DNA from: a phage
Length of the DNA: 64,000 nt
Reading direction: 5' to 3' (one strand)
Sequence record: PZ445517.1
Below, piece after piece: positions 22,188 through 37,610 of the stretch (its first letter is position 1; each line of letters starts with the position of its first letter). The notes beneath the pieces were generated by a model, which was not told the origin of the DNA, ran no database searches, and saw nothing but the letters and a program-made list of their open reading frames with translations. A program made the position numbers and the translations under genes.

Positions 22188-23201
22188 TCATTTATAATAA
22201 CTTCGGTGGTTTTCAAGATAAACCCTCTCAAGGAAGTCATCCCAGAAACCCATGTCTACTTTTTGCTGCATACCGTTTTTAGAAGCTTCAATGGATGCTG
22301 CTTCTACTTGATCGACAACATCTTCCAAAAACTCTTGAACCGTTTTAAATGGATGTTTACCCAACTTCACGTCGAGAATAAATGGAGCATCTTGGAGTGG
22401 ATAAACCAAGTCACCAGTTTTGTAAATTTCCAATAGTTGGAGCCCGCCACGGCAAGCATGACTTAGAGCTTTCCAATCAATGCCTTCATTCGCTTCAGCT
22501 TTACGAGCGCGTTCACCATATTCAGCATCAAGTTTATTCAAAGACTGCTTAAGCTCAATAAGAGAAAGCGTTGTCTGATATTTACGACCCAACACAGTAT
22601 AGAACGTTTGCGGGCCTGTTTTCTCATGATTATGGAATACCCATTCGCAGAATTCGTTTTCTGGAAGACGGTGTTTAATATCTGCAATTTTAGTACGACG
22701 TTGTCCTTGTGTTCCATCTTCTCGGTAATCAACCCACTGATCGGGGATTTGATTAACTACTTTCAATACATCACGCAATGCGGCCAAACGAGAACCCTTA
22801 ACACCATATTTAGAAGCTTGCTTGCGGACATATCCTAAATAGGATTTCATGTTAGTCGTATAAAAACGAGAACGATTGTCTTGGATAAATTTCCACACAT
22901 CAGGTAAATCAGATTTAACCACTAGTTCAGGTGGAGTGTGAAGCATATCCAATGCTACAGTTTCACCATCTGCTGCTAATTTAAAGAAATACTTAAGACT
23001 GTATAGTTCATGGTCAATATCATCTTTAGTGTTTTTAGATGATGTGTTGTTAGTGTTTTTACTCATATGCTCTTTAACATTTCCGATAAGAATATCGCGA
23101 GCAGGAGGAACAAAGATTTCTTTAAAATCCACATCAGATTCTGGAGTAGAAGTTCCATAAAGATGACTACCAAAATAGCTTTTCATTACTGTTTTCATCA
23201 T
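22188..23201 (-). CDS. nucleotidyltransferase-fold protein (Pol-beta-like NTase motif)
   Basis: GSHLYGTSTPESDVDF matches the GS...D.D NTase signature; 337 aa; ATG verified. Confidence 0.6.
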   Translation of the reverse strand: MMKTVMKSYFGSHLYGTSTPESDVDFKEIFVPPARDILIGNVKEHMSKNTNNTSSKNTKDDIDHELYSLKYFFKLAADGETVALDMLHTPPELVVKSDLPDVWKFIQDNRSRFYTTNMKSYLGYVRKQASKYGVKGSRLAALRDVLKVVNQIPDQWVDYREDGTQGQRRTKIADIKHRLPENEFCEWVFHNHEKTGPQTFYTVLGRKYQTTLSLIELKQSLNKLDAEYGERARKAEANEGIDWKALSHACRGGLQLLEIYKTGDLVYPLQDAPFILDVKLGKHPFKTVQEFLEDVVDQVEAASIEASKNGMQQKVDMGFWDDFLERVYLENHRSYYK

Positions 23202-34398: not shown

Positions 34399-34757
34399 TT
34401 TAATTTCCTGCAATCACTCACAAACTCTTTCATTGATTCATTTTCAATATAAGACATGTAGCTATTATATTCTTTTAATTGTATTTTGTAATCCTTTTTT
34501 CTTTGCCAATTTATTTTAAAATTATCATAATGAAAATATAACATGGTACCAAAGAATGAAAATAATGAAATAATTTTAGTATAGTGAAGTTCACTCCAAA
34601 CTTCTGTTATATTTACTGTGCCGTCGATGTTTAAAATAAGACAGTCAATTAACAATCCAAAAAGACTACCCGCAAGAGCTGCAGCCAACGCCACAGCAAA
34701 AATTAAAAATGACTCATGAAGCGAATATTTGACTTTATTTAGTTTTGGCTTTTGCAT
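34395..34757 (-). CDS. membrane protein (120 aa)
   Basis: two hydrophobic helices; ATG verified. Confidence 0.5.
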
Positions 34758-35131
34758 CGTGATTCCTTAACAAATTTCATAATTTCATCAAATTCATATG
34801 CAGCAAGTTTAAGCTGGTGTTCCTTTTTAATCTTTTTACACTGTGCTTTCCAATCACGTACGCGTTTACGATAATGTCTTCCTTGATACCAGTATCCTAC
34901 CCAATTTACCGGTACTAATAAAAGTGGAACTACCAATGGAAGAATTAGCATTAACACAAGTATTTCGCCAGAATCAATATCAGTCATAACATCTAAAACA
35001 CCTCCAATAATCAATAGAATTACAAATGATATAAGTATAACAGGACCTATTAATACATCAGTAGAAATTATCTGACGCTTTAATTCATACTTCAAAGGTT
35101 TACTTGGAAGGTATAGTGATGGCTTTGACAT
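34739..35131 (-). CDS. membrane protein
   Basis: track start is TTG; trimmed to ATG (MSKPSLYLPSK); two hydrophobic helices. Confidence 0.5.
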   Translation of the reverse strand: MSKPSLYLPSKPLKYELKRQIISTDVLIGPVILISFVILLIIGGVLDVMTDIDSGEILVLMLILPLVVPLLLVPVNWVGYWYQGRHYRKRVRDWKAQCKKIKKEHQLKLAAYEFDEIMKFVKESRCKSQN

Positions 35132-35708
35132 ATTCTCTACATTCCTTAACAAATTTTTCTAGTAATAAATCGCTTTCAAAACTAGGATTTTCCACTAATT
35201 TATCAAAAAGATCATCAACAATAGTTAAGATATTCTTTTTACTAAGAATACGTTTATTTTCATGCTTCGTTTCAGAATCAACTATAAGAGTAAAGAAATA
35301 TTTCTTTCCCTGAAATTTTACTGTAGTATCAATATAGAATAAATTTGACTTTTGTAAGTTACGTTTAAACCATGCGTCACTTAAACTATAAACACCGAGA
35401 TAATCAAAATCGTCGTTTAAATAACAAACTGTCCATTCAGGAGAAATGAAATCAGTAAATTCAACATCAAAATCGCATGTCAATGAATAAATTGATTCAA
35501 TACTGTTAATAAGTATTCCAGGACGTATTAAAGACTTTTTACCTCTGGAAAATCTTCCAGAAAGACTTTCATCAGTTTCATATGAAGAACCCCAATAATA
35601 ATTACGTCCTTCTGCCATACGTTTAAGAGCATTTAGTAATTGGTCTGGAACATCAACCTGTCTTTGGAACTCTTCAAACATTGAATTGAAATCACTTTGC
35701 ATTTTCAT
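35100..35708 (-). CDS. hypothetical protein (202 aa)
   Basis: track ORF; ATG verified. Confidence 0.5.
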   Translation of the reverse strand: MKMQSDFNSMFEEFQRQVDVPDQLLNALKRMAEGRNYYWGSSYETDESLSGRFSRGKKSLIRPGILINSIESIYSLTCDFDVEFTDFISPEWTVCYLNDDFDYLGVYSLSDAWFKRNLQKSNLFYIDTTVKFQGKKYFFTLIVDSETKHENKRILSKKNILTIVDDLFDKLVENPSFESDLLLEKFVKECREYVKAITIPSK

Positions 35709-35727: not shown

Positions 35728-35745
35728 TAGGGGCCGAAGCCCCTT
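35728..35745 (-). terminator. UUCG-tetraloop hairpin (GGGGC-UUCG-GCCCC)
   Basis: plus ggggccgaagcccc between ORFs. Confidence 0.4.
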
Positions 35746-35749
35746 ATCA

Positions 35750-36342
35750 TTATTTCAGAGAATTAATATATTCCTGAACATCGGCAGAGGTAGTTTCAAC
35801 CCCAGAAATATTACCATTAAAGGTTTCAACTCGAGCAAGAGTATCTTCAATATCAACCTTAGTCAGTGCTGCAATTTCAACTACATCATCAGCAGTACTA
35901 ATTCCAAGTGCATTCGCTGCACGAGTTTCACGGATATATTCCAATTTAACTGCAAGTTCTTGGCGAGCATCATCTAACTCAACTACTTTCTTGGCGATTT
36001 CAATTCGCATTTCAGCATAACCATCAGCTTTAGTAGTCAACTGATCAGCTGTTCGACGATATAGTAAACCAAGTTTAGCATGCATTGTTACATCTTGACC
36101 TTCAGAAAGAAGCTTGCGAATTTCACGCTCTTTTGATTCGGCCTGCTTATTCTTTTCGACAATAAGTTCACGAATACGCTTTTCTTCGTTAATAGATTTA
36201 ACGGAAGCAGTTTTTAGGTCTTTAATCTTATCAAGTAGTTTTGCTGCTGCAGCAGTATACTGTTCTTCAACAGATAGATTTTAGCCATAGCAGAACCAAG
36301 TTTAGTGCGAATAAACTCAACAATTTTCTTCAGTGTGTTCAT
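35750..36342 (-). pseudogene. coiled-coil protein gene split by a frameshift
   Basis: ATG at 36340-36342 with AAGGA SD opens a 42-codon frame ending 36214; an overlapping frame is protein-like from 36280 but has no start codon until ATG at 36085; shift lies within 36217-36280. Confidence 0.45.
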
Positions 36343-36385
36343 AGTATTTCCTTAGGTTGATTAAGATTTAAAATCCGTGAGAGTA

Positions 36386-37135: not shown

Positions 37136-37610
37136 TTATTTGATTTGTTTAGCAGACCAAATGCGGTCTTTAATAATTTTTTGGATGTCTTCAACATACT
37201 CAAGAGAGTGAGCATGTGGGTTATCTTTGAAACTATAAGCACGAGCTAGCTTTTGGCCTTCAGTTTTGATTACTAAAAGCTCTTTAAGGATAGCTTCATA
37301 TTTGGAGATAATTCCTTTAACAATATTTTTTTTCTTGCGTAGCTTTAGGATCTGCTTTAGGAGCAGGTTTACCTGAAGCCTTTGCAAAAGCAGCGCCAGT
37401 AGCAACTAAACTTTTCCAGGCCATACTAACAGCATTCCCCGTAAATCCTTCTGCTTTCATATCACGAGCAAATTGGAATCGTGATTCATCGGAAGCATCT
37501 TTATAGGAATATTTACCCGCGGCAATGGCAGCTTTTGCAACAGCTTGAATTTCAGTGCTAGATGCTTCATTTAACACCGCTTCATTTAAAAATTGAGCAT
37601 ATGATTTCAT
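37136..37610 (-). CDS. CTS-bearing internal-protein-like gene split by a frameshift at an A8 run
   Basis: ATG ORF 37317-37610 starts MKSYAQFLNEA; continuing frame 37136-37405 has no ATG and begins at TTG; the frames switch at the A8 run 37326-37333. Confidence 0.5.

Follow-up and report, generated by a model that had tools for sequence, protein, structure and literature searches.

In the window, the 64,000-nt stretch of phage DNA that was analysed, a short open reading frame on the minus strand stops after 42 codons, and an overlapping, protein-like frame continues for 176 codons without a start codon at its beginning. The first-pass annotation took the region (35750–36342) for a coiled-coil protein gene split by a frameshift and offered a sequencing error, a recent pseudogenisation or a recoding site as the cause. 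The question is which gene is split, and which of these causes applies. We consider it highly probable that e.6, a conserved accessory gene, is present in the region as a real loss-of-function allele of very recent origin, which arose by an ordinary slipped-strand event in a dispensable gene.

Identity of the gene and its reading frames

The sequence of the window matches record LR597657.1 of Escherichia phage T4_ev240 with 100% identity; adding 30290 to a window position gives the position in this record. T4_ev240, a T4-like phage, is a natural isolate that came from the gut virome of an infant, its name does not denote an evolved T4, and its genome is only approximately 96–97% identical to those of its nearest relatives. 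This phage and its companions came from the faecal viromes of 1-year-olds in the COPSAC2010 cohort and were obtained by plaque isolation, without an enrichment step, on E. coli MG1655 hsdR or E. coli C. The isolate genomes were annotated with RAST, and that of T4_ev240 was assembled from Illumina MiSeq reads with SPAdes (PMC6969025).

In T4, the orthologue of the region is gene e.6 (AF158101, 69312–69905), which encodes a "conserved hypothetical protein" of 197 aa with unknown function; the UniProt name of the family is [quoted passage not shown]. The gene is annotated as a single 594-nt CDS in T4, phiD1, teqhad, PhiZZ6, and T2, and in these five genomes, as in the window, it lies upstream of e.5-e.4-e.3 on the same strand. 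The window region was 95–98% identical to the single-ORF e.6 in about 500 Tequatrovirus records, and the phiD1 orthologue, used as the query, matched PHROG 1203 over residues 1–197 (E = 1.5e-87). The protein restored by the addition of one A was identical to T4 e.6 at 196 of 197 residues. The sole difference, E100D, is private to the T4_ev240 allele.

The reading frames were found as the first-pass annotation had described them. An ATG at 36342–36340 (minus strand) follows the Shine-Dalgarno (SD) sequence AAGGA at 36349–36353 (minus) with a 6-nt spacer; both were read directly from the sequence, and the AAGGA was invariant in the alignment with phiD1 and T2. This start opens ORF1 (36214–36342, minus; 42 codons and a stop), in whose product the first 21 residues are native to e.6 and the last 21 are out of frame. 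The second frame (35750–36280, minus; 176 codons and a stop at 35750–35752) encodes e.6 residues 22–197 in an undecayed form. The sole ATG, GTG, or TTG in this frame between 36280 and 35750 is the ATG of Met87 at 36085, at which a 111-aa ORF begins as the C-terminal remnant (35750–36085, minus). This ATG is not preceded by a well-spaced SD sequence; a GAAGG ends 13 nt before it. The stop probability per codon, calculated from the base composition (34.7% GC), was 0.074, and a 176-codon open stretch would occur by chance with P of approximately 1.3e-6 under this base-composition model. Across its six frames, the window contains 8607 stop-to-stop stretches, of which only 40 are as long as this. 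The 176-codon open −1 frame is no chance pattern. Members of the e.6 family have an uninterrupted ORF of 195–203 codons, in place of which the window contains the 42-codon ORF and the start-less frame. Judged from its reading frames, the window copy is a disrupted allele of the e.6 family and not a functional member.

The GenBank record of T4_ev240 annotates only the 111-aa remnant, as "Phage host specificity protein (ACLAME 1259)". This label is carried by many e.6 records and appears to be an automatic RAST/ACLAME name without support here. The correct description of the locus is "e.6, disrupted by a frameshift". The same record leaves the orthologue of e.4 (130 aa in relatives) unannotated, which corresponds to the ORF at 34739–35152 (minus). 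Between the e.6 stop and the e.5 start, the minus-strand transcript contains a GGGGC-UUCG-GCCCC hairpin with a C(UUCG)G tetraloop (35729–35744), and no T-run follows it on the coding strand. From its sequence, this hairpin looks like the stable T4 intercistronic hairpins and not like a terminator.

No sequence match for e.6 was found in Pfam, NCBIfam, or PDB. The fold of the protein was predicted with an AlphaFold2 model built with 42 homologues (mean pLDDT 75.7). The model comprises an N-terminal helix of low confidence (residues 2–22), a hairpin of two long helices (residues 25–80 and 86–145) with block-mean pLDDT values of 71–97 that exceed 90 through the centre, and short C-terminal helices. 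The long helical hairpin agrees with the coiled-coil protein proposed in the first-pass annotation. The eight best Foldseek PDB matches of the model were Vipp1/PspA, and residues 4–143 of e.6 gave a weak collinear sequence alignment with residues 4–145 of Vipp1. The predicted arrangement of an N-terminal helix, a helical hairpin of approximately 120 residues, and short C-terminal helices would resemble PspA, Vipp1 (IM30), and ESCRT-III. PspA_IM30 (Pfam PF04012) matched none of the 42 e.6 members, and the sequence-profile matches to Vipp1/PspA in PDB were not significant (E = 1.5–3.4 for the Vipp1 chains; hhalign probability 29%).

The one-base deletion and its alleles in metagenome contigs

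The first-pass annotation had placed a single-base indel between 36217 and 36280, predicted a joined protein of approximately 197 aa, and suggested an alignment to orthologues. The alignment with phiD1 and T2 revealed GCT AAA AAT CTA (A5) in the relatives and GCT AAA ATC TAT (A4) in the window. The missing A thus falls in the run at 36279–36282 (minus), at the upstream edge of the proposed interval, and shifts the frame after Lys21; adding one base gives a protein of 197 aa, the length of the orthologues. The e.6 gene was 594 nt long in all 59 relatives examined, which were sampled evenly down a ranking of 503 records, and 593 nt long in the window. A 61-nt query centred on the A4 run found an exact match in one of 500 GenBank records, T4_ev240 itself, and the best of the other matches spanned 62 nt. 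Moreover, the deletion was private to the window in a comparison with five relatives (5/5). The first-pass annotation had named orthologues with two ORFs as the observation that would refute it; such an arrangement was absent from the orthologues, and the split was missing in 499 of the 500 related records. The number of private frame-breaking indels over approximately 37 kb of aligned sequence was 3 in the window and 2–19 in each of the five relatives, which indicates that the assembly is not unusually indel-rich.

We looked up the allele by exact sequence using the 42-aa frameshift product, the 111-aa remnant with D100, and the intact 197-aa protein with D100. The 42-aa product was also called on Logan contigs, which are assembled from raw reads. 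Four contigs were 100% identical to the window without gaps and contained A4: a 5,960-nt contig of Logan SRR14001074, a section of 11,127 nt taken from the 166,912-nt scaffold of ENA ERZ28596887 (SAMN18354265), 2,811 nt of ENA ERZ28602068 (SAMN18354281), and 1,379 aligned nt of Logan SRR14000869 (L009, L011, L012, and L013 in our contig list). A fifth contig, ENA ERZ28602639 (SAMN18354289; L014), differed from the window by 0 mismatches and a single gap in 15,419 aligned nt, and the gap is the e.6 run, which is A5 in this contig. It encodes an intact 197-aa e.6 with the private D100. The A5 tract of L014 and the A4 tract of the window, L009, L011, and L012 are accordingly the ON and OFF lengths in one clonal background. 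The reproduction of A4 by different libraries and assemblers, together with A5 on an identical background, indicates that the deletion is real, very recent, and polymorphic in one clone. Judged from the assemblies, A4 and A5 segregate within one clone of a natural gut phage.

The study label "LIXU21-1" and the accession range SAMN183542xx suggest, by naming only, that the metagenomes are COPSAC2010 infant samples (PRJNA715601; Kapa library, NovaSeq) and thus come from the cohort of the isolate. If this link is correct, the contigs provide a culture-independent view of the same natural population, which argues against a mutation from laboratory propagation. The contigs may represent the same faecal sample or cross-sample carry-over instead of separate children, in which case they confirm the A4 allele without showing its spread.

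A second homopolymer frameshift lies approximately 1 kb upstream on the same strand, at 37326–37333 (minus) within 37136–37610. The run is A8 in the window, A7 in teqhad and PhiZZ6, and interrupted in phiD1, and it is the sole 8-base homopolymer in the window. It splits the 157-aa homologue of phiD1 g140 (PHROG 2280, unknown function) into a 97-aa ORF (37317–37610) and a shifted remainder. All contigs of the clone that extend across this lesion contain it, the one with the intact e.6 among them, which means that the lesion is older than that in e.6 or possibly partly rescued by slippage at A8. Furthermore, a private 1-nt insertion relative to the five relatives is located at approximately 22705 in an nrdC.11-like gene (ORF 22188–23201, minus). 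The 337-aa ORF is intact despite this insertion, and a nearby compensating change must therefore exist.

Constraint on e.6 and the cause of the split

Pairwise dN/dS values among six e.6 alleles (those of the five relatives and the restored window copy) were 0–0.063 at dS of 0.05–0.16. The homologues, which are 48–88% identical, occur across Straboviridae infecting Escherichia, Klebsiella, Pectobacterium, Serratia, Yersinia, and Aeromonas, and all 42 of them are single proteins of 195–203 aa. These values indicate that e.6 is normally under strong purifying selection. Of the four private substitutions in the window copy, three are synonymous, and the 176 codons downstream of the lesion are free of stops, which indicates that the frameshift is too recent for any decay. 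In a CRISPRi-ART dCas13d knockdown screen with 7 guides, T4 e.6 was scored "Not Fit" (PMC11879866, supplementary file 15), which denotes no measurable fitness effect in the laboratory host. The lack of a fitness effect upon knockdown explains how a phage with this lesion can be viable. Dispensability under laboratory conditions was shown for T4 and, by analogy, would extend to T4_ev240.

Broken copies of e.6 were also seen in metagenome contigs of unrelated wild T4-like phages (L015, L016, L017, L018, L021, L022, and L024). These included +C at gene nt 140, A5 to A4 in a different run at nt 129–133 on two distinct backgrounds, E74 changed to a stop, and −1 at nt 256. Two contigs match e.6 only from gene nt 109 and nt 168 onwards, respectively. 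All of these alleles are broken at sites other than the A4 run of the window, and some of them could be assembly errors in low-coverage contigs. Among annotated genomes, e.3 of PhiZZ6 is annotated as two CDSs (L007, 21587–21948), and nrdC.4, nrdC.6, and nudE/e are annotated as split or fused in T2 (LC348380, L008). In the T-even group, accessory genes split by frameshifts are thus common, whether the splits are real or artefactual.

The following course of events would account for the allele. One A was lost from the A5 run at codons 21–22, which leaves A4, and the sequence context points to slipped-strand mispairing in phage DNA replication as the probable route. Ribosomes that initiate at the normal SD sequence and ATG leave the frame after Lys21 and terminate at codon 43. 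The remaining 176 codons, including the whole predicted helical hairpin, have no start before Met87, and because Met87 lacks a properly spaced SD sequence, they are probably untranslated. The truncation would thus entail loss of e.6 function. The phage would tolerate this loss owing to the dispensability of the gene in the laboratory, as found for T4 and presumed for T4_ev240. The mutant A4 and the ancestral A5 coexist in an otherwise identical clone, in faecal samples that are probably from the infant cohort of the isolate.

Of the three causes offered in the first-pass annotation, recent pseudogenisation was borne out by the A4 run in independent assemblies, the A5 run on an identical 15.4-kb background, and the undecayed downstream frame, whereas the other two lost ground. 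If the split were a sequencing or assembly artefact, the true sequence would be A5 with an intact e.6, and one A would have been dropped in the consensus. The site is a homopolymer, the A8 run 1 kb away contains a second private indel, the downstream frame is as pristine as an error would leave it, and one contig of the same clone has A5, all of which fit such an error. However, A4 occurs in four contigs from two other pipelines (ENA scaffolds and Logan) and from SRR/SAMN data other than those of the isolate, and the private indels in the window are few overall. Illumina indel errors at runs of 4–5 bases are rare. The isolate genome is itself a MiSeq and SPAdes product (PMC6969025). We regard an artefact as very unlikely. 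Even less probable, to the point of being extremely unlikely, is programmed recoding, in which −1 ribosomal frameshifting or transcriptional slippage on the A4 template would still yield full-length e.6. The shift needed to rejoin the frames is indeed −1, the downstream frame is intact, the gene is under strong purifying selection, and the overlap offers two single-tRNA re-pairing sites for a −1 shift and no others, AAC to AAA at 36240 and AAG to AAA at 36222. A shift at either site would nevertheless replace native residues with 13–19 out-of-frame residues, and the native protein would be made only if tRNA-Lys slipped at the run itself, from AAA to UAA. No slippery heptamer X_XXY_YYZ in the zero frame was found in ORF1, and the 90 nt downstream gave a plain MFE of −11.1 kcal/mol without a shuffle control. 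RNA-polymerase slippage needs an A/T run of about 8–9 or more, and a transcriptional slippage site was rejected, the run being far too short at 4 bases. The two-frame arrangement is not conserved: it occurred in 0 of the 59 sampled relatives, which are single-ORF, and 499 of the 500 records differ from the A4 segment. The A5 allele in the same clone also marks A4 as a fresh mutation and not an evolved signal.

The alternatives above dispute that the lesion is real or that it inactivates the gene. Another accepts both and attributes the allele to selected loss or on/off switching, in which inactivation of e.6 is advantageous in some hosts and A4 and A5 alternate and are maintained by selection in the gut. 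An e.6 that is, for example, costly or sensed by host defence would, as a proposal, favour inactivation. In favour of this reading, A4 and A5 share an identical background, the isolate and four metagenome contigs all have A4 as their consensus, other wild lineages contain independent e.6 lesions (those listed above at nt 140, at nt 129–133 on two backgrounds, at E74, and at nt 256), and strong conservation combined with laboratory dispensability is typical of conditionally useful accessory genes. Against a neutral loss, the very strong purifying selection on e.6 across Straboviridae makes a natural loss somewhat unexpected. On the other hand, a 5-base run is no high-rate switch, the site is used by no other lineage among the 500 GenBank records, split accessory genes are annotated in PhiZZ6 and T2 as well, and the metagenome samples may lack independence. 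On balance we consider selected loss or switching improbable. A narrower version, in which a possibly PspA/Vipp1-like e.6 is reversibly switched off by a one-base slip and is costly or defence-triggering in some gut E. coli, we rate as quite improbable; if it is true, the A4/A5 polymorphism in one clone would be a snapshot of such selection in infant guts.

The reading that we prefer, a recent slipped-strand loss of e.6, describes an event that is ordinary in kind and lies in a known gene, and its main value is in annotation and quality control. As this allele illustrates, a search of independent public assemblies for the allele-specific ORF products can resolve a suspected homopolymer error without recourse to reads. 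The results also indicate that e.6, conserved and strongly constrained in Straboviridae, can yet be lost in a wild, infective gut phage, in agreement with the knockdown in T4. Functional study of e.6, which these findings mark as an accessory gene of conditional use, would be worthwhile.

Comparison with known frameshift systems

Programmed −1 frameshifting is exemplified by E. coli dnaX (A AAA AAG) and by the G/GT tail-chaperone genes of tailed phages. The e.6 locus of the window resembles these systems in having two overlapping frames that a −1 shift could join. It differs from them in that it has no slippery heptamer, its overlap is not conserved, its relatives are single-frame, and the native protein would need the shift at one exact codon. 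Phase-variable contingency loci are a second point of comparison, as the ON (A5) and OFF (A4) states of e.6 differ only in homopolymer length in a clonal background. The tracts of contingency loci usually have 7 or more repeats, whereas that of e.6 has 4–5 bases, does not recur in the 499 other genomes, and gives no evidence of repeated switching.

A third comparison is with the Streisinger-type slipped-strand frameshifts at short homopolymers in T4, which include those of the lysozyme gene e and those at A-run hot spots in rII. The e.6 allele differs from these in coming from a wild gut phage and not from a laboratory cross, and in affecting a gene without a known function or phenotype. Like them, it is a single-base loss in an A run of a T-even gene that shifts the frame and leads to an early stop. 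The change is also reversible in principle by the regain of one A, and both states occur on one background.
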